A stretch of 48,834 nt of DNA from an uncultured Saprospiraceae bacterium (GTDB lineage Bacteria > Bacteroidota > Bacteroidia > Chitinophagales > Saprospiraceae), in contig CAZKDA010000006.1 of NCBI GenBank assembly GCA_964551455.1, positions 1-48,834 of the forward strand. The letters run 5' to 3'. Positions within the stretch are counted from its first letter, which is position 1, and each line of letters opens with the position of its first letter. Shown one piece after another: positions 87 through 48,808 of this stretch. The notes below the pieces were generated by a model. That model searched no databases. It had not been told where the DNA came from and saw only the letters and a program-made list of their open reading frames with translations. The translations under genes and the position numbers were made by a program.

Positions 87-1409
87 TTAAATCGAAATCT
101 GGAATTGAGATACAAACATTCCTCTTCGATGTGTTGAGATCCAGTCTCCTGAGTTGTTTTGCTCAAACACAGGTCGGCTTTGGTAATTAAACGAAATCTT
201 TGTATGATGCCCTTCAATCAACCAATTGAATCCTCCTTCATACATCAACACGGGATCTTTGAGGAGATCAAGTTGCGAATATTGTACAGCGGCATAGGGC
301 TGGATCGTTCCCATTTTACCCAATAAACCTTTCTTAAAAAGATAACCTGTTTGAGCGTAAAATGTCGTTCCGGTTCCTATCATCGGAAATGCATTTCCAG
401 CACCGTTAAAAGTACCATTTTCATTTACACCATTAGCAGCATTCATAACACCAATATTCCTTACATAATTTTTACCATAATCATTGACACTGAAAGTGGC
501 ATAAGTAGTGATTGCAGTTTCTTTTTCAGCGTTTAGTACATGGTCATAAAAAATATCAACAGCAAAAAGAGCCAAAGCGCTATATACCGTATCAATTCCA
601 TTGATTTCATTTTCAGAATGCCACATAGCGTTTTGCTGATGAATAAAACCTGCACCTATATTAAACACATTTTTTTTGCCTAAATAAGTACCTGCACTAT
701 AGGGCGTGTCATTAGATTCTTTTTCTAAAAACTGATACTTTACATAACCCTGAAGCTGCGGGTTTGGTGGTTCGGGTGAAAACAATGAATTCGATGAAAT
801 GTCCACGCCTTGCTCAGTAGATCGGGCAATACTCATGGGTTTGGTAAGTGCAAAACGATAATCGATCTTCCCCAACCTGCCTTTAGCATGAACACTGAAC
901 TTTCGGAAAAACTGATCATTTACATCGATCGTTACCTGCTGATACAGCGGGGCGTCCACTCCAAGTATAGTGCCGGTTGAAGGGGAAGCATAGCGCGAAA
1001 GCCCATTCCAGCCTGAAAGCCCTGCACCAATATATAAATAGTCGTTTACTAATTTCAATTGCGCAAATGCATCATGAAAGAATAAGCCTTGTTTACGTGT
1101 TGCATTAAAGTGCAAATTGCTGGTGCCAAAATGAGTGTAAAAAAATATGTTTTCCGAAAGCTGTCCAAAGACTTGAAACCGGGTTCTTCTAAGGCCAATA
1201 TCAAAGGTTTCTGACTGGGGATGACCATTTATTGTTGTACCCGGGTTATTCTGATTATACCTCACCCACGCTTGATTGAAGAAGATGGCCTGTACATATT
1301 GGCTACCATCTTCATTCAAATTAAATTTTAATGCTTTGTCCTGGCTCAATACACTTGTGCCTGTAAACATGATTATTGCTGTTACTGTCAGGATTATCTT
1401 ATGTTTCAT
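87..1409 (-). CDS. putative outer-membrane beta-barrel porin
   Basis: 440-aa ORF. It has an N-terminal signal peptide (MKHKIILTVTAIIMFTGTSVLSQ) and a G/N/Y/F-rich alternating beta-strand pattern through to the C-terminus (...FVSQFQISI). The porin O/P-like assignment is from memory only. Confidence 0.5.
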   Translation of the reverse strand: MKHKIILTVTAIIMFTGTSVLSQDKALKFNLNEDGSQYVQAIFFNQAWVRYNQNNPGTTINGHPQSETFDIGLRRTRFQVFGQLSENIFFYTHFGTSNLHFNATRKQGLFFHDAFAQLKLVNDYLYIGAGLSGWNGLSRYASPSTGTILGVDAPLYQQVTIDVNDQFFRKFSVHAKGRLGKIDYRFALTKPMSIARSTEQGVDISSNSLFSPEPPNPQLQGYVKYQFLEKESNDTPYSAGTYLGKKNVFNIGAGFIHQQNAMWHSENEINGIDTVYSALALFAVDIFYDHVLNAEKETAITTYATFSVNDYGKNYVRNIGVMNAANGVNENGTFNGAGNAFPMIGTGTTFYAQTGYLFKKGLLGKMGTIQPYAAVQYSQLDLLKDPVLMYEGGFNWLIEGHHTKISFNYQSRPVFEQNNSGDWISTHRRGMFVSQFQISI

Positions 1410-9433: not shown

Positions 9434-10189
9434 TCACAGATACTTCACCAAAACCCGCACACCCACAAAAGCTACCAAAATCGCCGTGATGAGTTTCACA
9501 AGATGAGGATTGAAACGAACGGCGCCGAGCCGCGAACCGATCTGACCGCCGGCAAATACGCTCAACATGAGCAGTGAAGCCAGTTGCCAGTCGATATTGA
9601 AATTGGGATTGCTCATCTGGCCAAACAGGCCGGAAACCGAATTGACCAGGATGAAAAAACTGGCCGTCGCCGCAATAGTTTTTGCATGATCCCAACGCAA
9701 CAGGTGCAGCAGTGGCGATAAAAATATTCCGCCGCCGATGCCTACCATCCCGGAAAGGAAACCGATGCCGCCACCAAGTCCGCTGTTGAGCGCCAACGTT
9801 GTTTTTTTATCTGTTTCGGATTGTTGGCTCCCGGATTTATCGGGTTGTACAAACATCAAGGCCGCCGCTGCAAGGAGCGCAAAACCAAGCAAAATGAAAA
9901 AGATTTTTTCGGAAATGCGAAAGCTACCGCCGAGATAGGCCAGGGGTACGCTGAAGATGACCAGCGGCAGCATTTTGCGCCACCTGAAGTGTTTGTTTTT
10001 GAAAAAAATATAACTCCCGAATGCCACTACGGTGATGTTGCATAACAATGCCACCGCTCTGAGCAGGTGATATTCAAAACCATACAAAGCCAAAATGGCC
10101 AGATAACTCGACCCGCCTCCAAATCCAACGGATGAATACAAAACCGCGATCAGAAAAAAGAAGAGTATGATTTCCCAGTGTTCCGGCAT
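9434..10189 (-). CDS. TauE/SafE family sulfite/anion exporter
   Basis: 251-aa polytopic membrane ORF with the duplicated Gly-rich motifs typical of TauE (SSVGFGGGSSYL; GMVGIGGGIFLSPLL). Its start lies 3 nt from the stop of the upstream ykgJ-like gene. Confidence 0.75.
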   Translation of the reverse strand: MPEHWEIILFFFLIAVLYSSVGFGGGSSYLAILALYGFEYHLLRAVALLCNITVVAFGSYIFFKNKHFRWRKMLPLVIFSVPLAYLGGSFRISEKIFFILLGFALLAAAALMFVQPDKSGSQQSETDKKTTLALNSGLGGGIGFLSGMVGIGGGIFLSPLLHLLRWDHAKTIAATASFFILVNSVSGLFGQMSNPNFNIDWQLASLLMLSVFAGGQIGSRLGAVRFNPHLVKLITAILVAFVGVRVLVKYL

Positions 10190-10192
10190 TTT

Positions 10193-10675
10193 CTAAAAAA
10201 TGGTTTTTAAACGGTTTACAATTTCCAAAACTGCCGGGCAGACCAGCGTATTTTTGAAAGTCAAATCCAGCAACTGGTGCATTTTCCGACGATCAGTATG
10301 CGGATATTCGCGACAGGCTCGCGGACGATTTTCATAAACAGAACAATAATTATCCTGTCCCAAAAACGGGCAGGGCGCTTCGTTCAAAACATAGTCGTTT
10401 TCATCGTCCAGATGAAGATATTTTTCAATAAATTCCGAAGGGCGGATCCTGAAATGTTTTGCCAACCGCTCAATGTCTTTATCCAGAAAAACAGGGCTGG
10501 TGGTCTTGCAACAATTGGCGCATTCGAGGCAATCGATCTCCTGAAAAACCGCTTCGTGCAAGGCGTGGAACTGTTCGTCCAACTCCCGCGGATGCTGGCT
10601 TTTCAGCTTTTGGATAAACTGCTTATTGGCTTTTTTCCGGTCTTTTGCCTGCTTTCTGAATTGTGCAATGTCCAT
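10193..10675 (-). CDS. YkgJ-family Cys-cluster (zinc/iron-chelating) protein
   Basis: 160-aa ORF with CLECANCCKT followed by further Cys residues (CPFLGQDNYCSVYENRPRACREYP), the UPF0153 pattern. Confidence 0.7.
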   Translation of the reverse strand: MDIAQFRKQAKDRKKANKQFIQKLKSQHPRELDEQFHALHEAVFQEIDCLECANCCKTTSPVFLDKDIERLAKHFRIRPSEFIEKYLHLDDENDYVLNEAPCPFLGQDNYCSVYENRPRACREYPHTDRRKMHQLLDLTFKNTLVCPAVLEIVNRLKTIF

Positions 10676-10714
10676 GGTTCAAAAGTAGTGAAATATTTGC
10701 TGCCTGTATCCTTT

Positions 10715-10814
10715 GGGGGGATTGTGGGAGATGATGGGGGATAGTTCCGACAAGTCGGAATGATCCCCGTTGCGCCCACGGCGCGACTATCCCCAATCAT
10801 CCCCAAAATTCCCC
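10715..10814. repeat. palindromic mosaic intergenic element
   Basis: The left arm ggggggattgtgggagatgatgggggatag (10715-10744) is roughly mirrored by the right arm ctatccccaatcatccccaaaattcccc (10787-10814). The centre holds hairpin ttccgacaagtcggaa (10745-10760) and gcgcc-cac-ggcgc. Confidence 0.7.
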
Positions 10815-10845
10815 AGGACGATTTATGATAAAAAACCAATTTGAC

Positions 10846-10853
10846 TATATTTG
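10846..10853 (+). promoter_or_regulatory. Bacteroidota-type -7 box (TAnnTTTG)
   Basis: TATATTTG lies 22 nt upstream of the ATG at 10875. It overlaps the alternative TTG start at 10851, which argues for the ATG. Confidence 0.45.
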
Positions 10854-10874
10854 CAAAAACTAAAAAATAACGAT

Positions 10875-13049
10875 ATGACTAAATTGCTCAGAACCTCCAT
10901 CCTTGTAGTATTAATTTCCCTGATTTCCAACATCCTCATCGCCGGCGAAGGCATGTGGTTGCCCCTGTTTTTGAAACAGCTCAACGAAAAAGAGATGCAA
11001 TCCATGGGCATGAAACTGACCGCCGAGGATATTTACAGCATCAACAAGGGGAGCCTGAAAGATGCCATTGTTCATTTCGGAGGGTTCTGTACTTCGGAAT
11101 TGATCTCCGGATCCGGGTTGTTGCTCACCAATCACCATTGCGGTTATGGCAATATCCAGTCGCATACGACCAGGGAAAATAACTACCTCAGAGATGGCTT
11201 TTGGGCAAAAAGCAAGGCAGAAGAGTTGCCGAATCCGGGATTGTTTGCCACCTTTATCGTAAGGATCGATGAGGTGACCGACGTAATATTAAAAGGTGTA
11301 ACTGAGGAGATGGCTGACAATGAGCGACAATCCACAATTGACAAAAATATAGACGCTCTCATAAAATCCACCGAACTGAAGTCTTATGAAAAATATACAG
11401 TCAAACCATTTTTCAAAGGCAACCAATATTTTGCTTTTCTGACCATGACTTACAATGACGTCCGCCTGGTCGGCACACCCCCTGAATCCATCGGGAAATT
11501 CGGAGCAGATACCGACAACTGGGTCTGGCCGCGGCACACGGGTGATTTTGCACTTTTCCGTATTTATGCGGGGCCTGATAACCTCCCTGCCGAATATTCC
11601 GAAGACAATGTTCCGTTCAAACCAAAACATTTTCTGCCCATTTCTCTGGACGGTGTTGCGGAAGGAGATTTCACCATGGTTTTCGGTTTTCCCGGAAGTA
11701 CTGACGAGTACCTCCCTTCTTTTGCTATCGAACAACTGGTGGATGTGCTCAATCCGGCCAAAATTGCTATTCGCGATAAAACGCTGAAAATCGTGGATGC
11801 AAAAATGCGCACCGATGCTGATGTAAAAATTCAGTATGCTTCCAAATTTGCCCGCATTGCCAATTATTGGAAAAAGTGGATCGGCGAAAAGCAGGGCCTT
11901 GAAAAAACCAACGCTATCCAAAAGAAGAAGTCATTGGAAATGGAATTCATGGCAAGGGTTAGCAAAAACAAAACCTGGATGCTCAAATACGGCAACATGC
12001 TGAGCGATTTTGATAAACTTTATAAAGAATTTGAACCTTACGCGCTGACATCGGAATATATCAATGAAATAGTCGGACGGAATACCGAAATCCTGCGTAC
12101 CGCTGCACAAATACAGCGCCTCGTGGAAACTTATGACCAAAACGGCGAGGCTGAGTACACAAGCCTCAAAGATAAAATGCGCAAAAATTTGGATAATTTT
12201 TATAAAGATTACAGACCGGAGATTGACCAGCAGGTATTTGCTGCGCTTATCGAAATGTATGTCTCTGGCGCAAAACTCGGCGCTGCCGATCATATCCTTG
12301 AAGAAATGGCGGCTCACAATACCAAGGATTTTTCAAAAGTAGCCGAACAAAAATTTTCCGAATCAGCAATACCTTACCGCGACAAACTTTACAAAATCCT
12401 GGATAGCGATCCTGAATCTGCCGTCAATCAGTTGAAAAATGACGTCATTTACCGTTTTTCCGTGTCAACGGCTAATGCTTTCAGAACCAAGGTGGCTCCA
12501 AAATACCACGAACTAAATGCGCAAATCAATTCTCTGCAACGCAAATACATGGCGGCTTTGATGGAAGTTTTTCCTGAAAAAAAGTTTTACCCCGACGCCA
12601 ACGGAACCATGCGCGTGACATACGGGCAGGTAAACGGCTATGCTCCCCGCGATGCGGTAACTTATGCAACGACGACTTACCTGGATGGTGTGATGGAAAA
12701 ATATGTACCCGGAGATTATGAATTCGATGTGCCAGCTAAACTGATCGAGCTTTATAACAGAAAAGACTACGGCCAATACGCTGAAAATGGCAAAATGCCC
12801 GTTTGCTTCATCGGCTCCAACCACACCACCGGCGGCAATTCCGGCAGCCCGGCTATCGATGCCAATGGCAACCTGATCGGTCTCAACTTCGATCGCGTCT
12901 GGGAAGGCACCATGAGCGATTACAACTACGATGTTTCGATATGCCGGAATATCATGGTGGATATCCGTTATGTATTGTTTATTGTCGATAAATTTGCAGG
13001 AGCCACCCATCTTATTGAGGAAATGAAGCTGGTGCATCCGAAATCTTAG
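10875..13049 (+). CDS. S46 family dipeptidyl-peptidase (DPP7/DPP11-like serine peptidase)
   Basis: A signal peptide is followed by the family-typical GEGMWLP. The catalytic regions are LTNHHCG (His) and GGNSGSP (Ser). About 724 aa from the ATG at 10875; the ORF track starts at a TTG at 10851. Confidence 0.85.
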   Translation: MTKLLRTSILVVLISLISNILIAGEGMWLPLFLKQLNEKEMQSMGMKLTAEDIYSINKGSLKDAIVHFGGFCTSELISGSGLLLTNHHCGYGNIQSHTTRENNYLRDGFWAKSKAEELPNPGLFATFIVRIDEVTDVILKGVTEEMADNERQSTIDKNIDALIKSTELKSYEKYTVKPFFKGNQYFAFLTMTYNDVRLVGTPPESIGKFGADTDNWVWPRHTGDFALFRIYAGPDNLPAEYSEDNVPFKPKHFLPISLDGVAEGDFTMVFGFPGSTDEYLPSFAIEQLVDVLNPAKIAIRDKTLKIVDAKMRTDADVKIQYASKFARIANYWKKWIGEKQGLEKTNAIQKKKSLEMEFMARVSKNKTWMLKYGNMLSDFDKLYKEFEPYALTSEYINEIVGRNTEILRTAAQIQRLVETYDQNGEAEYTSLKDKMRKNLDNFYKDYRPEIDQQVFAALIEMYVSGAKLGAADHILEEMAAHNTKDFSKVAEQKFSESAIPYRDKLYKILDSDPESAVNQLKNDVIYRFSVSTANAFRTKVAPKYHELNAQINSLQRKYMAALMEVFPEKKFYPDANGTMRVTYGQVNGYAPRDAVTYATTTYLDGVMEKYVPGDYEFDVPAKLIELYNRKDYGQYAENGKMPVCFIGSNHTTGGNSGSPAIDANGNLIGLNFDRVWEGTMSDYNYDVSICRNIMVDIRYVLFIVDKFAGATHLIEEMKLVHPKS

Positions 13050-14645: not shown

Positions 14646-14691
14646 CGAATCCCGCTTTTTCTCGAAAAAACGGGACGATGAAATCGGGATT
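14646..14691. repeat. ~45-nt conserved hairpin element, copy 1
   Basis: cgaatcccgctttttctcgaaaaaacgggacgatgaaatcggga is nearly identical to 46598-46641 (cgaatcccgctttttcgagaaaaagcgggacgatgaaatcggga). It contains a cccgcttttt/aaaaa(g)cggg stem and an outer atcccg/cgggat pairing. Confidence 0.8.
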
Positions 14692-19648: not shown

Positions 19649-19802
19649 GTGAACGGTGAACGGTGAACGGTGAACGGTGAACAGTGAACAGAAAACAGTG
19701 AACAGTGAACGGTGAACAGTGAACAGAAAACAGTGAACAGTGAACAGAAAACAGAAAACAGAAAACAGAAAACAGAAAACAGAAAACAGAAAACAGTGAA
19801 CA
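19649..19802. repeat. heptamer tandem array, 22 units (GTGAACG/GTGAACA/GAAAACA)
   Basis: Counted by eye with no spacers. The order is 4x GTGAACG, then mixed GTGAACA/GAAAACA, then 7 consecutive GAAAACA (19747-19795), then one GTGAACA. Confidence 0.9.
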
Positions 19803-46540: not shown

Positions 46541-46752
46541 TCGTTCCGACTTCCCCTATTTTTTAATTTTTAAAACAAAAAAAACAAACCACATCGCCAC
46601 GAATCCCGCTTTTTCGAGAAAAAGCGGGACGATGAAATCGGGAAACCACAAATCACGTATAAAATTCACCTTTGCGATCCTCGCGTATCCTTTGCGACCC
46701 TCGCGGTTAAAATCACGAAACCACAAACCTGCCTGCCTTCCGGCTGGCCACA
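46541..46752. repeat. composite mosaic repeat block filling the intergenic region
   Basis: It contains ttccgacttccc (also at 19.9 kb) and copy 2 of the ~45-nt hairpin element (46598-46641). It also has ccacaaatcac words and tttgcgatcctcgcg / tttgcgaccctcgcgg repeats related to gcaaagatcgcg at 25.4 kb. Confidence 0.75.
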
Positions 46753-46756
46753 AACT

Positions 46757-47518
46757 TTATAGATCGTTAATGATCGCCAGCAAAGCATAATTGATCTGTG
46801 CTCTTTGAACCTGCGCCGCGCTATTGTCCATTAAGCCCATGTTTACTTGCCGTTCCAGGGATTTGTTTCTGCTCGACAGCAGGATAAACTGGTTATAAAC
46901 ATCCTCATCCCGGTCTTTGATGTAGCCGAGCATCAGGTCTATGGCTTTGCCTGTTTTGCCGGAGCCGATCAGGTCGCGGCATTCATCCACAGGGCTTGAT
47001 AATGGTTGCGGTGCCGGCGAAGGAACAGCGGCAGCAGGAGCAGCGACTAGGGTTGCACCTCCTTCACCGCGCATTTCCCGGATCAGGTTTTTCAATTGAT
47101 TGACAATATCGAGGTAAGCGGCATCCTTATCATCCCAGGTGGAGATCGGACGCGCTCCTTTCGGCAATGCCTGGAGCGCAGCAAATGCTGTATCCTGCCA
47201 GTCGGCATGCCGCACAATGATGGGTACCACCCTTGCATTATCGTTGGGATCATTGTGGCGCTCGATGGCGCGGGTTACTTCCACATCAAAGCAATATTCG
47301 GAAGCGATAAAATCCATGCTGATCAGTAGCAGTATGATATCAGCCTCATTCAATTCCGTTTTGATGTGCTTGTCCCATTCGCCACCTGCGGGAATTTGGC
47401 GGTCTTCCCACGCCGACACAAACCCCTGCCGTTTCAGATTGGCAAGGCTGGTCATGAGCTTGTCTTTGTAAGGCTCGTCTTCGTGGGCATAAGAAATAAA
47501 CACCTTTACGGGTTTCAT
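46757..47518 (-). CDS. TIR domain protein with a C-terminal helical adaptor-like (effector-associated-domain-like) module
   Basis: 253-aa ORF. TIR blocks: KVFISYAHEDE, ADIILLLISMDFIASEYCFDVEV (Glu at the expected catalytic position) and VVPIIV. These are followed by a Pro/Ala linker and an ~85-aa helical tail (DECRDLIGSGKTGKAIDLMLGYIK...INYALLAIINDL). No signal peptide or TM. Confidence 0.8.
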   Translation of the reverse strand: MKPVKVFISYAHEDEPYKDKLMTSLANLKRQGFVSAWEDRQIPAGGEWDKHIKTELNEADIILLLISMDFIASEYCFDVEVTRAIERHNDPNDNARVVPIIVRHADWQDTAFAALQALPKGARPISTWDDKDAAYLDIVNQLKNLIREMRGEGGATLVAAPAAAVPSPAPQPLSSPVDECRDLIGSGKTGKAIDLMLGYIKDRDEDVYNQFILLSSRNKSLERQVNMGLMDNSAAQVQRAQINYALLAIINDL

Positions 47519-47524
47519 ATCTGT

Positions 47525-48100
47525 TTATTTATCAGGTTGATAAGTTTCAAAAAATTCTTTTCTTGCAATGCGGTAAACCTCGCTGAAATCAAGCGGACTT
47601 GCCAGGTAATCGCCTTTTTTGACGACCATTTTTTCGCCCCAGGGCGCAACGAAATGAAACTCTTCAGGCATATCCAGTTTTTGCAACATCGCTTCATTCA
47701 TCTCCAGCGCCATTACTTTCCCTTTTGCGGTATAAACCGAAAAACCATCGTCGGCTTGTTCCAGAAAATCGTAACGCTCCTGGAATTTCGCGGCGCCAAT
47801 GATGTACATTTCTCCAGCCTCTGTTTGATTTTTGATTATAAAATCACCGGCTTTAGCCTGGTTGGTCGTTTCCAGCCCGTCGGCAGTAATGGTTTGAATT
47901 TTTTCGCCTTCTTCCGCTTGCCGGGCATACACCTTTTTGATTTTTTTATAAACCTGACCTTCGGACTTTATCACCGGTATCAAGGTTTGCATTAGTTCCT
48001 GTTGCGAATACACTGGCTGGTTATTTTTATTTTCAGTAGTAGGATCATGGTGACAAGCGGCAAAAAAGACAATCAAAACGGGGATCAGGCGCGGAAGCAT
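47525..48100 (-). CDS. hypothetical lipoprotein, co-transcribed with the TIR gene
   Basis: 191-aa ORF with a lipobox (LIVFFAAC). Its stop lies 6 nt upstream of the TIR ATG. The C-terminal VKKGDYLASP...F.ETY is faintly reminiscent of PGDYG-type small beta domains (very tentative). Confidence 0.55.
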   Translation of the reverse strand: MLPRLIPVLIVFFAACHHDPTTENKNNQPVYSQQELMQTLIPVIKSEGQVYKKIKKVYARQAEEGEKIQTITADGLETTNQAKAGDFIIKNQTEAGEMYIIGAAKFQERYDFLEQADDGFSVYTAKGKVMALEMNEAMLQKLDMPEEFHFVAPWGEKMVVKKGDYLASPLDFSEVYRIARKEFFETYQPDK

Positions 48101-48267
48101 AAATTTAAAATTTATTGGACAAAGTTTAAAATGTATGGAACAATTGCCGGAATCAGGGAACCGCTTTTAAAATCTAACAACTGCAATTTTACCAAAAGTT
48201 ATTTTTAATTCTTGAAACCGGAAGAAATATTTTACTATTTTTAGCAAGCCAAAATTTCCGAAAAACC

Positions 48268-48717
48268 ATGAATCCAATGACAGAACAGGATTACCTCAGC
48301 CAACGGATCGATGACCAGATCAATTGGTACAGCAGAAAGAGTACTTTCAACAAAAACCGGTATCAACTCTTCAAGGCTTTGGTGATCATCCTTTCTTCCA
48401 GTATTCCCGTGCTGGCCATCATGATCACCGAAAATGACCAATTGTTGAAAATGATCGTCGGGATCGCCGGTGTCTTGATCGTGGTGATCGAGGGTATCTT
48501 ATCCCTTTACAAATACAAAGACATCTGGCTGGAGTACCGGATGACTTCGGAAATGCTAAACCGGGAAAAGCTGTTGTACCTGACGGGCGCCGGGCCATAC
48601 AAAACGAAAAAAAGTTTCCAGGATTTTGTGGAAAAAGCCGAAGCGATCATGAGTTCTGAAAACAAAAACTGGCTGGCTAACCAAATCAAAAAAGAAGAAC
48701 CCGAAAAGGTTGAATGA
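48268..48717 (+). CDS. DUF4231 / SLATT-family two-TM protein
   Basis: 149-aa ORF. N-terminal helix YLSQRIDDQINWY...K..Y, two adjacent TM helices (LFKALVIILSSSIPVLAIMI; MIVGIAGVLIVVIEGILSLY), then KYKDIWLEYRMTSEMLNREKLLY. This is the DUF4231 signature as I recall it. Confidence 0.75.
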   Translation: MNPMTEQDYLSQRIDDQINWYSRKSTFNKNRYQLFKALVIILSSSIPVLAIMITENDQLLKMIVGIAGVLIVVIEGILSLYKYKDIWLEYRMTSEMLNREKLLYLTGAGPYKTKKSFQDFVEKAEAIMSSENKNWLANQIKKEEPEKVE

Positions 48718-48724
48718 TGAGTTT

Positions 48725-48808
48725 GTAAACAGTAAACGGTAAACAGTGAACAGTAAACGGTGAACGGTAAACGGTAAACAGTGAACAGTAAACGGTGAAC
48801 GGTAAACC
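48725..48808. repeat. heptamer tandem array, 12 units (GTAAACA/GTAAACG/GTGAACA/GTGAACG)
   Basis: Counted by eye. It starts 8 nt after the DUF4231 stop codon and has no spacers. It belongs to the same unit family as 19649-19802. Confidence 0.9.

Follow-up and report, generated by a model that had tools for sequence, protein, structure and literature searches.

A TIR–EAD11 protein, a PGDYG-like lipoprotein and a divergent SLATT two-TM protein at a Saprospiraceae contig end: probable part of a larger Thoeris-like module

The stretch of DNA analysed here, 48,834 nucleotides from an uncultured Saprospiraceae bacterium (assembly GCA_964551455.1, contig CAZKDA010000006.1) and referred to as the window, ends with three open reading frames at the visible end of the contig, which terminates in a dispersed heptamer repeat (Table 1). 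The open reading frame of a PGDYG-like protein (PGL) ends 6 nt upstream of the start of a TIR-EAD11 gene on the same strand. A SLATT gene is divergent from PGL across a 167-bp gap, and TIR-EAD11 thereby lies two genes from SLATT. Promoters for both directions are presumed to lie within this gap; scans for sigma-70 promoters and terminators gave matches not above shuffled expectation, and Bacteroidota promoters fall outside the coverage of the scan. The GC content of the three genes (0.43–0.51 vs 0.44 in the window) gave no clear signature of foreign origin, and the genes flanking the trio in the window are housekeeping genes by Pfam.

Table 1. Features at the contig end (positions of the window; residues refer to the respective protein)
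Feature	Residues	Nucleotides	Strand	Evidence or remark
TIR-EAD11 protein, 253 aa		46757..47518	-	Pfam TIR_2 1e-16, EAD11 3.4e-17; PADLOC ThsB 3e-50
TIR domain of TIR-EAD11	4-150	47069-47509	-	invariant E80
Pro/Ala linker of TIR-EAD11	154-173			disordered in AF2 model
EAD11 four-helix adaptor of TIR-EAD11	172-253	46760-47005	-	
PGL (PGDYG-like protein), 191 aa		47525..48100	-	weak PGDYG match; lipoprotein signal; AF2 pLDDT 87
Lipoprotein signal of PGL	1-16, Cys16	48053-48100	-	
PGL-SLATT divergent intergenic region, 167-bp, AT-rich		48101..48267	.	sequence
SLATT_1/DUF4231 protein, 149 aa		48268..48717	+	Pfam, NCBIfam, phrog_7395 8.6e-41
Heptamer tandem array (GTAAACG/GTGAACA, ~12 copies)		48725..48807	.	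directly 3' of SLATT stop
Palindromic hairpin, 44-nt (CCCGCTTTTTCGAGAAAAAGCGGG core)		46600..46643	.	downstream of TIR-EAD11 stop

An earlier note on this DNA, made from the sequence alone, described the trio as bracketed by repeat blocks. The heptamer array on the right is real, and the left block (46541–46752) was resolved into two short direct repeats plus the palindromic hairpin. However, both repeat types are dispersed. A hairpin copy that is 93% identical lies at 14646–14689, and the hairpin is a dispersed REP/terminator-like element; the heptamer array is likewise a dispersed repeat, since an array of the same type is present at 19649–19725. The repeats were therefore ruled out as the boundary of a mobile element.

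The call of a TIR domain followed by a helical adaptor was confirmed by Pfam, which assigned TIR_2 to residues 6–116 and EAD11 to residues 178–253 and matched ThsB_TIR only at 3e-05, and by the PADLOC ThsB model PDLC00420. The AF2 model (pLDDT 81) agreed, with a TIR fold at residues 4–150 and four helices at residues 176–252, the EAD11 unit reaching a pLDDT of ~90, and so did Foldseek, which matched the model to the SPARTA TIR, AbTir (TM 0.75), RUN1 and SARM1. E80, within CFDVEV, is the Glu at the catalytic position; it is invariant among 32 homologues and was aligned with the D-E of Cat1. When the window TIR was compared by BLASTP with two validated type VII ThsB TIR domains, E was 0.72 for one and no match was obtained for the other.

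The EAD11 tail, as a homotypic adaptor, could dock the TIR onto EAD11 proteins whose genes lie at other sites in the genome. A homology search by k-mers that started from the 85-aa tail yielded no candidates. An exhaustive profile search recovered EAD11 on proteins of several kinds (KAP NTPases, caspase/CHAT, trypsin, subtilase, LRR and TPR proteins), with as many as seven copies in an array, and with this repertoire (KAP NTPase, caspase, CHAT) it behaves as a typical adaptor. One related locus (L007) has an adjacent gene for an EAD11-2TM protein. The idea that the tail hints at an unlinked STAND-type sensor gained no support, as a search of the 48.8-kb window, and of up to 10 kb around the loci of relatives, found no EAD11-bearing partner.

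The identification of the divergent gene product as a DUF4231/SLATT two-TM protein also stood. It matched DUF4231 (1.7e-22, 80.3 bits, cutoff 24.7) and SLATT_1 (3e-15, 56.7 bits, cutoff 26.3) in Pfam and SLATT_1 in NCBIfam (5e-39, 133 bits, cutoff 41); two adjacent TM helices followed by YKYKDIWLEYRMTSEML are readable in its sequence, and in PADLOC its sole match was to a generic '2TM effector' model, at a weak E of 0.0075. Its membership of the ThsH family was assessed indirectly, through adjacent ThsB orthologues, in a census based on a closer alignment set, the first SLATT alignment having been too divergent. A ThsB_TIR gene on the same strand, up to 68% identical to the Pseudohongiella ThsB, adjoins SLATT in 34 of 80 SLATT-anchored loci. 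The window SLATT is 37–43% identical over its full length to the SLATTs of five loci (L150, L151, L162, L163 and L173) in which the gene beside SLATT shares 61–68% identity with the validated type VII ThsB of Pseudohongiella. By these homologies, the window SLATT is a ThsH homologue.

For PGL, the earlier call of a lipoprotein with a lipobox was retained. The N-terminus, MLPRLIPVLIVFFAAC, was judged by inspection to hold a positive n-region, a hydrophobic h-region and a lipobox ending in Cys16, and all close orthologues keep this character while varying in sequence, as do members of other clades. Many family members are without the signal (L013 and L052 exemplify the leaderless type), and the exported PGL is in the minority within a family that is mostly cytoplasmic and leaderless. 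The Pfam PGDYG match lies below threshold (E 0.007, 17.1 bits vs a 27-bit gathering cutoff). Some family members exceed that threshold, and PGL matches the same PHROGs as a bona fide 77-aa PGDYG protein, which in L007 is encoded between patatin and EAD11 genes. The best reading of these matches is that PGL is a divergent PGDYG relative or superfamily member. In the AF2 model, the ~160-aa core is all-beta and resembles a pair of PGDYG-like modules, to which an N-terminal helix is added, and among close orthologues ~26 residues are invariant, most of them polar. Foldseek of the model against the PDB returned nothing significant (best E 0.1, TM<0.2) and a PGL profile had no significant match among PDB sequences, so PGL was given no fold assignment. 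Only chance-level matches came from PADLOC and NCBIfam (PADLOC CARF_HEPN E 0.0013), and no mention of PGDYG or PGL was found in the literature searched.

Gene neighbourhoods, whose conservation the earlier note had left to be examined, were surveyed in a PGL-anchored census. Among 74 non-redundant PGL loci, SLATT lies at most two genes away in 25, patatin in 15 and TIR in nine, and further out the same loci hold SLATT in none, patatin in one and TIR in four. The association of PGL with SLATT, patatin and TIR far exceeds chance. PGL, TIR and EAD11 form a single polypeptide in two loci (L030 and L124), where this fusion is the only TIR adjoining SLATT–patatin, and since both are fused there, PGL is taken to be a genuine functional partner of TIR-EAD11. 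Patatin is fused to PGL in L076. Across the family, PGL is joined at either end to TIR, patatin, GNAT, GT1, an HAD-like domain or a TPR-S protein, the last in a ThsI-like form. It was also found beside NADAR, an ADP-ribosylglycohydrolase and the ART-like DUF4291 in a NADAR-PGL-ARH-DUF4291 operon, beside PnuC, with Macro and within a jumbo-phage NAD-salvage cluster. Phage homologues of PGL include Xoo-sp13 gp202 and those of XacN1 and Vibrio GR11A. By its neighbours, the family is consistently tied to NAD/ADP-ribose biology.

PGL was also seen in other arrangements. PGL and SLATT genes occur as co-directional, nearly abutting pairs (e.g. L102), and a divergent patatin and PGL pair is kept across ~10 Algoriphagus species. 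Two loci (L013 and L046) hold the SLATT operon and PGL without TIR-EAD11, and in 17 of the 25 PGL+SLATT loci no TIR of either clade was found in the flanks. A broad iterated ThsB profile added no hidden ThsB-type TIRs to these TIR-less loci. Apparently, PGL–SLATT can function without a linked TIR.

The earlier note had regarded the three genes as a compact module, a view that did not survive comparison with relatives. In the closest ones, SLATT is the first gene of a SLATT-patatin-small TIR operon (TIR of ~158 aa) which continues beyond the position of the contig end. A five-gene module is complete in L002/L003, L004 and L098, and parts of it were found in L097, L100 and L101; it sits in two different genomic contexts, and its two TIRs, TIR-EAD11 and the small TIR, are paralogues with 50% identity. 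Synteny with the window is shared by L097, in which SLATT is followed by a repeat spacer and then patatin. L001, like the window, breaks at this repeat. The contig ends 27 nt past the heptamer array, and patatin and the small TIR are not in the window. Probably, the contig end at the array is an assembly break that conceals these two genes. As to PGL, comparative genomics shows that it is an integral third component of the module. The exported partner that the note had left unexplained is genuine by virtue of the fusions to TIR-EAD11, and it belongs to a mostly leaderless cytoplasmic family linked to NAD and ADP-ribose.

Taken together, the trio belongs, with moderate confidence, to a defence-type module of five genes in Saprospiraceae, one that is horizontally mobile and works like type VII Thoeris. 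In its layout, the operon of SLATT, patatin and small TIR would be divergent from PGL followed by TIR-EAD11. Upon infection, a TIR enzyme (Glu E80) would turn NAD+ into an ADP-ribose-derived signal, by analogy most likely canonical cADPR, and this signal would cause the ThsH-like SLATT to oligomerise and breach the membrane. Signalling from a TIR to a two-TM SLATT protein, as proposed before, is now backed by experiment for homologous SLATTs (type VII Thoeris, cADPR; Yirmiya et al. 2025), and the accompanying statement that no experimental description existed is outdated for TIR+SLATT, which was validated in December 2025. The patatin phospholipase of the full module would probably be a second effector. 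PGL might bind or process a small molecule derived from NAD or ADPR and tune or couple the response, ligand binding being suggested through guilt by association. Most relatives have a cytoplasmic PGL or one fused to TIR; as a lipoprotein, the PGL of this clade would encounter its ligand beyond the cytoplasm.

Several observations were counted against the five-gene explanation. An exported PGL cannot touch a cytoplasmic TIR. The window TIR has no BLAST similarity to validated type VII ThsB TIRs, and its clade was treated as effectors by Kaur et al. The TIR-less PGL+SLATT loci, the SLATT-less distant TIR-EAD11 orthologues, the absence of patatin and the small TIR from the window and the lack of a solved relative for the PGL fold were counted in the same way. 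The clade of the window TIR is often fused to EAD2/3/7/9/11, CHAT or AAA, and this, together with the EAD11 repertoire and the EAD principle laid out by Kaur 2020 (PMC7159879), would fit two neighbouring systems: a TIR-EAD11(+PGL) effector that depletes NAD+ and is recruited by an unlinked EAD11 core, next to a separate type VII-like Thoeris of SLATT, patatin and small TIR. Such a core could be a KAP NTPase or a multi-EAD11 scaffold that, in the manner of the Kaur/Aravind systems, binds the effector by homotypic contacts between EAD11 domains. The more distant TIR-EAD11 orthologues (35–41% identity), which are without SLATT, and the two loci with the SLATT operon and PGL but without TIR-EAD11 also favour a separation. 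However, an EAD11 partner was found neither in the window nor within 10 kb in relatives, the sole TIR beside SLATT–patatin in L030/L124 is the PGL-TIR-EAD11 fusion, the two TIRs are paralogues, and PGL joins both halves, as it neighbours SLATT, patatin and TIR or is fused with them. Two independent systems are regarded as unlikely.

Two further explanations centre on PGL itself. It might act as an upstream sensor, or as an enzyme making or transforming the NAD-derived signal, with PGL–SLATT and PGL–patatin being TIR-independent systems parallel to ThsB–ThsH and the TIRs being add-ons. The loci without detectable TIR, the abutting PGL–SLATT pairs, the Algoriphagus patatin and PGL pair with the patatin–PGL fusion, and the association with NAD-consuming and ADPR-processing enzymes agree with this, and the invariant, mostly polar residues are compatible with an active or binding site. 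On the other hand, fusions at either end to many unrelated enzymes form a regulatory or binding pattern rather than a catalytic one, no catalytic fold is recognisable, TIRs accompany PGL and in one case even form a fusion with it, and in the genomes with TIR-less loci a TIR could be encoded elsewhere. An upstream PGL is regarded as rather improbable. Less probable still is a role outside defence, in which PGL would be an accessory of NAD/ADP-ribose salvage or of the reversal of ADP-ribosylation (here an exported binding protein) and the proximity to TIR and SLATT would reflect shared NAD metabolism or gene-order drift. The neighbourhoods with PnuC, NADAR-ARH-DUF4291 and phage NAD salvage, the housekeeping flanks of the window, and exported PGLs of Flavobacteriia, Brevibacillus and Fusobacteriales without defence neighbours would be in line with it. 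Nevertheless, SLATT, patatin and TIR, to which PGL is tightly adjacent or fused, are all classic types of abortive-infection effector, a validated anti-phage effector is among the homologues of the SLATT, and the entire module moves between genomic contexts.

A wider proposal, advanced tentatively, is that PGL, as a tandem PGDYG-like beta domain, is an unrecognised domain that binds or processes nucleotides derived from NAD or ADP-ribose. It would pair with SLATT or with patatin in two-gene systems parallel to TIR-based Thoeris, would have been captured by jumbo phages and, where exported as a lipoprotein in this Saprospiraceae clade, could let the module sense or clear an extracellular NAD-derived alarm. 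Under this proposal, a phage PGL would possibly be a signal sponge or an NAD-salvage accessory, and the extracellular alarm could be, for example, cADPR from lysed kin.

Signalling from TIR to SLATT is already known biology, and as a system the locus is of no new kind. What is new is PGL, an unstudied and structurally orphan family that is the most constant partner of SLATT, patatin and TIR in Bacteroidota and recurs with ADP-ribosylation writers and erasers, with NAD transporters and in jumbo-phage NAD-salvage clusters. A PGL that bound or transformed a nucleotide made by a TIR would represent a new class of sensor or regulator in immunity of the Thoeris type and, possibly, a new means of counter-defence for phages, and its exported form raises the idea that immune nucleotides are sensed extracellularly. 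The locus is further a natural case of the ThsH effector family re-partnered with a different TIR clade that bears a Death-like-style adaptor.

Among known families and systems, PGDYG (Pfam PF14083) is an uncharacterised family of bacteria and phages. PGL differs from it by its length of ~160 aa, with apparently two such modules and an N-terminal helix. The Rst_2TM_1TM_TIR three-gene system, reportedly described by Rousset et al. in 2022, is said to combine a TIR protein with a two-TM protein and a third protein that has a single hydrophobic segment at its N-terminus. Its parts list resembles the trio on the surface and serves as a lead only.

In EAD-coupled NTP-dependent conflict systems (Kaur, Burroughs, Iyer, Aravind, eLife 2020, PMC7159879), effectors are fused to small all-helical EADs, as is the TIR in the window, and their repertoire of caspase/CHAT, trypsin, subtilase, TIR, P-loop NTPase and multi-copy scaffolds is like that of EAD11. 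The same work reported SLATT genes beside nucleotide-related effectors and describes 10 EADs in its text; EAD11 is named in no paper text found in a literature search that included it. In contrast to these systems, no core NTPase, VMAP or iSTAND with a matching EAD11 is present in the neighbourhood here, and the constant neighbour is PGL rather than an NTPase.

The closest counterpart is type VII Thoeris, in which a ThsB TIR and the SLATT effector ThsH act through canonical cADPR, as validated in December 2025 (Yirmiya et al., bioRxiv 2025-12-03, doi 10.64898/2025.12.03.692087). Thoeris types are defined there by the effector, and multi-effector operons (ThsH + ThsI) were reported. Shared with the window are a TIR gene linked to a ~145–150-aa SLATT two-TM effector, the ThsH family of the SLATT, as found by the indirect comparison, and the Glu at the catalytic position of the TIR. 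Differences are that the window TIR is of another clade (TIR_2) without BLAST similarity to validated ThsBs, although the clade is not strictly type-defining, and that TIR and SLATT are divergent in the window instead of forming a two-gene operon. In addition, the module here has two paralogous TIRs, one bearing EAD11, a patatin inside the SLATT operon and PGL as a constant extra component. Saprospiraceae was not found in the listed portion of the type VII Thoeris supplementary entries (Yirmiya 2025); the host here belongs to the Bacteroidota. Type II Thoeris pairs a TIR with a Macro-TM effector that binds His-ADPR (introduction of Yirmiya 2025, doi 10.64898/2025.12.03.692087), and, as proposed for the present module, it couples an ADP-ribose-recognising part to a membrane-disrupting one. 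PGL is not a Macro domain and the TM effector here is SLATT; by analogy PGL and SLATT could represent a split version of type II Thoeris logic.

The three genes at the contig end lie where the earlier note had placed them: the lipoprotein stop is 6 nt from the TIR start, and a divergent gap of 167 bp leads to the third gene. The predicted TIR and DUF4231/SLATT domains were all recovered by profile searches. The 253-aa protein (TIR-EAD11) matched Pfam TIR_2 (1e-16), the small helical effector-associated domain EAD11 (3.4e-17) and the PADLOC ThsB model (3e-50), and the 149-aa protein matched DUF4231 (1.7e-22) and NCBIfam SLATT_1 (5e-39). In an AF2 model of TIR-EAD11 (pLDDT 81), a disordered Pro/Ala linker joins the TIR fold to a tail of four confidently predicted helices, with SPARTA TIR-APAZ, AbTir, RUN1 and SARM1 as closest structural matches. 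The glutamate proposed as catalytic is E80, which is invariant across 32 homologues and aligned to Cat1. The SLATT protein also matched the phage family phrog_7395 over its full length (8.6e-41), and thus SLATT_1 genes of this type also occur on phages or prophages.

In the 191-aa lipobox protein (PGL), the proposed PGDYG match is present but sub-threshold (E 0.007). The PGL family has more than 200 members, mainly in Saprospiraceae, Lewinellaceae and Algoriphagus, and about 26 invariant residues, mostly polar. Judging from PHROG and Pfam coordinates, PGL may be a tandem of two PGDYG-like modules. The predicted model is confident (pLDDT 87), no solved relative was found by fold or sequence, and PGDYG was not mentioned in the literature searched. 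Most members are leaderless and about 160 aa long; the lipobox is confined to few clades, including that of the window, where its character is kept and its sequence varies. PGL is predicted to be exported in the window clade, whereas in sister loci it is a cytoplasmic protein or is fused to the TIR.

Genes and repeats of the locus, with second repeat copies elsewhere in the window
Feature	Position	Copies and setting
TIR-EAD11 (253 aa)	46757-47518(-)	
PGL (191 aa)	47525-48100(-)	
SLATT (149 aa)	48268-48717(+)	
Heptamer array (GT[AG]AAC[AG])n	48725-48807 and 19649-19725	two copies of one microsatellite; intergenic
Palindromic hairpin, 44 nt, CCCGCTTTTTCGAGAAAAAGCGGG core	46600-46643 and 14646-14689	two copies, 93% identity

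Repeats had been thought to bracket the trio. The right-hand heptamer array is real, with two such microsatellites observed against a chance expectation of none, but since a second copy lies at 19649-19725, it is a dispersed repeat and no boundary. The left block consists of the hairpin, which looks like a dispersed REP/terminator-type element, and two short direct repeats. The window is an entire contig of 48,834 bp. It stops 27 nt past the heptamer array, at a point where a second, independent assembly of this locus is broken as well.

The trio, which had been read as a compact module, is probably a truncated view of a five-gene one. In relatives with a 76-77%-identical TIR-EAD11, the genes after SLATT encode a patatin phospholipase and a small TIR of 157-158 aa, which shares 50% identity with the TIR domain of TIR-EAD11; the layout is TIR<-patatin<-SLATT, divergent from PGL->TIR-EAD11. 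In the closest relative (L097), which shares the hydrolase/DUF3276 neighbours and an 86% identical PGL, a repeat-containing spacer and then the N-terminus of the module's patatin lie downstream of SLATT. Heptamer-like and GGGAGGAAA-type simple repeats also flank the module there. The module was found in two genomic settings, next to a BD-FAE hydrolase in one and, in the other, flanked by an M48 peptidase and giant SprB adhesins, which argues that it moves as a unit.

Neighbourhood conservation was confirmed in 74 non-redundant PGL loci from genomes. SLATT lay no more than two genes from PGL in 25 of them, patatin did so in 15 and TIR in nine, compared with none, one and four farther away in the same loci. 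PGL is fused to TIR-EAD11 in two loci (L030 and L124), corresponding to the gene pair adjacent in the window, to patatin in another (L076), and elsewhere to GNAT-, GT1- and HAD-like domains. A 608-aa protein of Ca. Thiodiazotropha (L089, 8660-10486) joins an N-terminal AFVAMPFG-motif domain, TPR-S and a C-terminal PGL, and its front part is similar in architecture to the type VIII Thoeris effector (CMP hydrolase and TPR). About ten Algoriphagus species (L066, L068, L071, L072, L079, L082-L085, L087) carry a divergent patatin and PGL pair beside DnaB and alcohol dehydrogenase genes, with no SLATT or TIR nearby.

Four Saprospiraceae loci (L042, around 10000-12200; L047, L048, L054) encode NADAR, PGL, ADP-ribosylglycohydrolase and DUF4291, the last predicted to be ART-like, in this order as an operon on one strand; with PGL in its midst, this resembles a writer/eraser set for ADP-ribosylation. 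In six further PGL loci (L021, L024, L025, L027, L028, L031) the gene directly before a leaderless PGL, in the same orientation and in conserved synteny, encodes a PnuC-type NMN/NR transporter. PGL homologues also occur on jumbo phages and large viral contigs (L091-L094). In Xanthomonas phage Xoo-sp13 (L092, 4281-5420) PGL lies between NMNAT/ADPR-pyrophosphatase and NAMPT genes, a GNAT-PGL fusion adjoins a Macro-domain gene (L094, 5596-6720), and the homologue of a Yersinia phage adjoins a DHH phosphoesterase.

An exhaustive EAD11 profile search returned 6,326 representative clusters, including multi-EAD11 arrays and fusions to caspase, CHAT, subtilase, trypsin with TIR, LRR, TPR and KAP NTPase. 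The hits P0241-P0246, P0257 and P0260 comprise proteins of 1,000-1,600 aa with three to seven tandem EAD11 and no other Pfam domain, and EAD11-KAP NTPase fusions; they may act as the scaffolds or cores of an EAD11 network. One operon (L007, 7771-10765) encodes, in this order, patatin, a 77-aa PGDYG protein, an EAD11-linker-2TM protein and a TIR-EAD11 orthologue (39% identity), so that two EAD11 proteins are neighbours and a membrane protein takes the place of the NTPase. Other TIR-EAD11 orthologues (L006, 10783-11721; L008, 10926-11819) have an FRG-domain protein or a second TIR protein (297 aa) downstream in place of SLATT or PGL.

The EAD11 architectures from the profile search fit the EAD adaptor logic (Kaur et al. 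2020, PMC7159879), and TIR-EAD11 might serve as effector of an unlinked EAD11 network; this is rather unlikely, and neither the window nor the 10-kb flanks in relatives contained an EAD11 partner. In 17 of the 25 PGL and SLATT loci no TIR of any clade flanks the genes, so the PGL->SLATT pair exists on its own. That PGL acts upstream, as the sensor or enzyme of systems independent of TIR, is nevertheless very unlikely, given its coupling to TIR elsewhere. A role in non-defence NAD metabolism appears even less probable, although the remaining recurrent neighbours of PGL are all NAD/ADP-ribose genes (the NADAR operon, PnuC, a Macro-domain protein); SLATT and patatin recur beside it as well.

The TIR and SLATT pairing, thought to be undescribed, has been validated as type VII Thoeris in a preprint of December 2025 (Yirmiya et al., doi 10.64898/2025.12.03.692087). 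There, infection leads TIR to produce canonical cADPR, which harms cells carrying the system, also when externally added, and the SLATT effector ThsH was modelled as a membrane-spanning oligomer. Among 80 metagenomic loci with a SLATT 37-52% identical to that of the window, the commonest neighbour (34 loci) was an adjacent, same-strand ThsB_TIR protein of about 132 aa that reaches 68% identity with the validated ThsB of Pseudohongiella, which identifies the window SLATT as a ThsH homologue. Other SLATTs in this census are partnered by TIR-CHAT, TIR-HEAT or TIR-AAA proteins. Arrangements observed are PGL->SLATT->TIR-CHAT (L102, L117), SLATT->TIR-AAA (L116, 1805 aa) and SLATT with TIR-HEAT (L165). 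Such ThsH-like SLATTs with long CHAT, AAA_16 or HEAT TIR proteins are further type VII-like variants.

The locus is probably a type VII-like Thoeris variant, in which a NAD-derived signal from TIR would activate SLATT and, probably, patatin likewise, leading to membrane disruption. From genomic context, we infer that PGL binds or processes a NAD-derived small molecule, and since type VII toxicity can be triggered by external cADPR, such a binder could conceivably act outside the cytoplasm. The interest of the locus lies in PGL rather than in the TIR-SLATT pairing. The window TIR showed no BLAST similarity to validated ThsBs and falls within a TIR_2 clade in which fusions to EAD, CHAT and AAA domains occur elsewhere. 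Whereas this TIR is not a ThsB of the validated type, the effector is a ThsH-homologous SLATT, as in type VII Thoeris.
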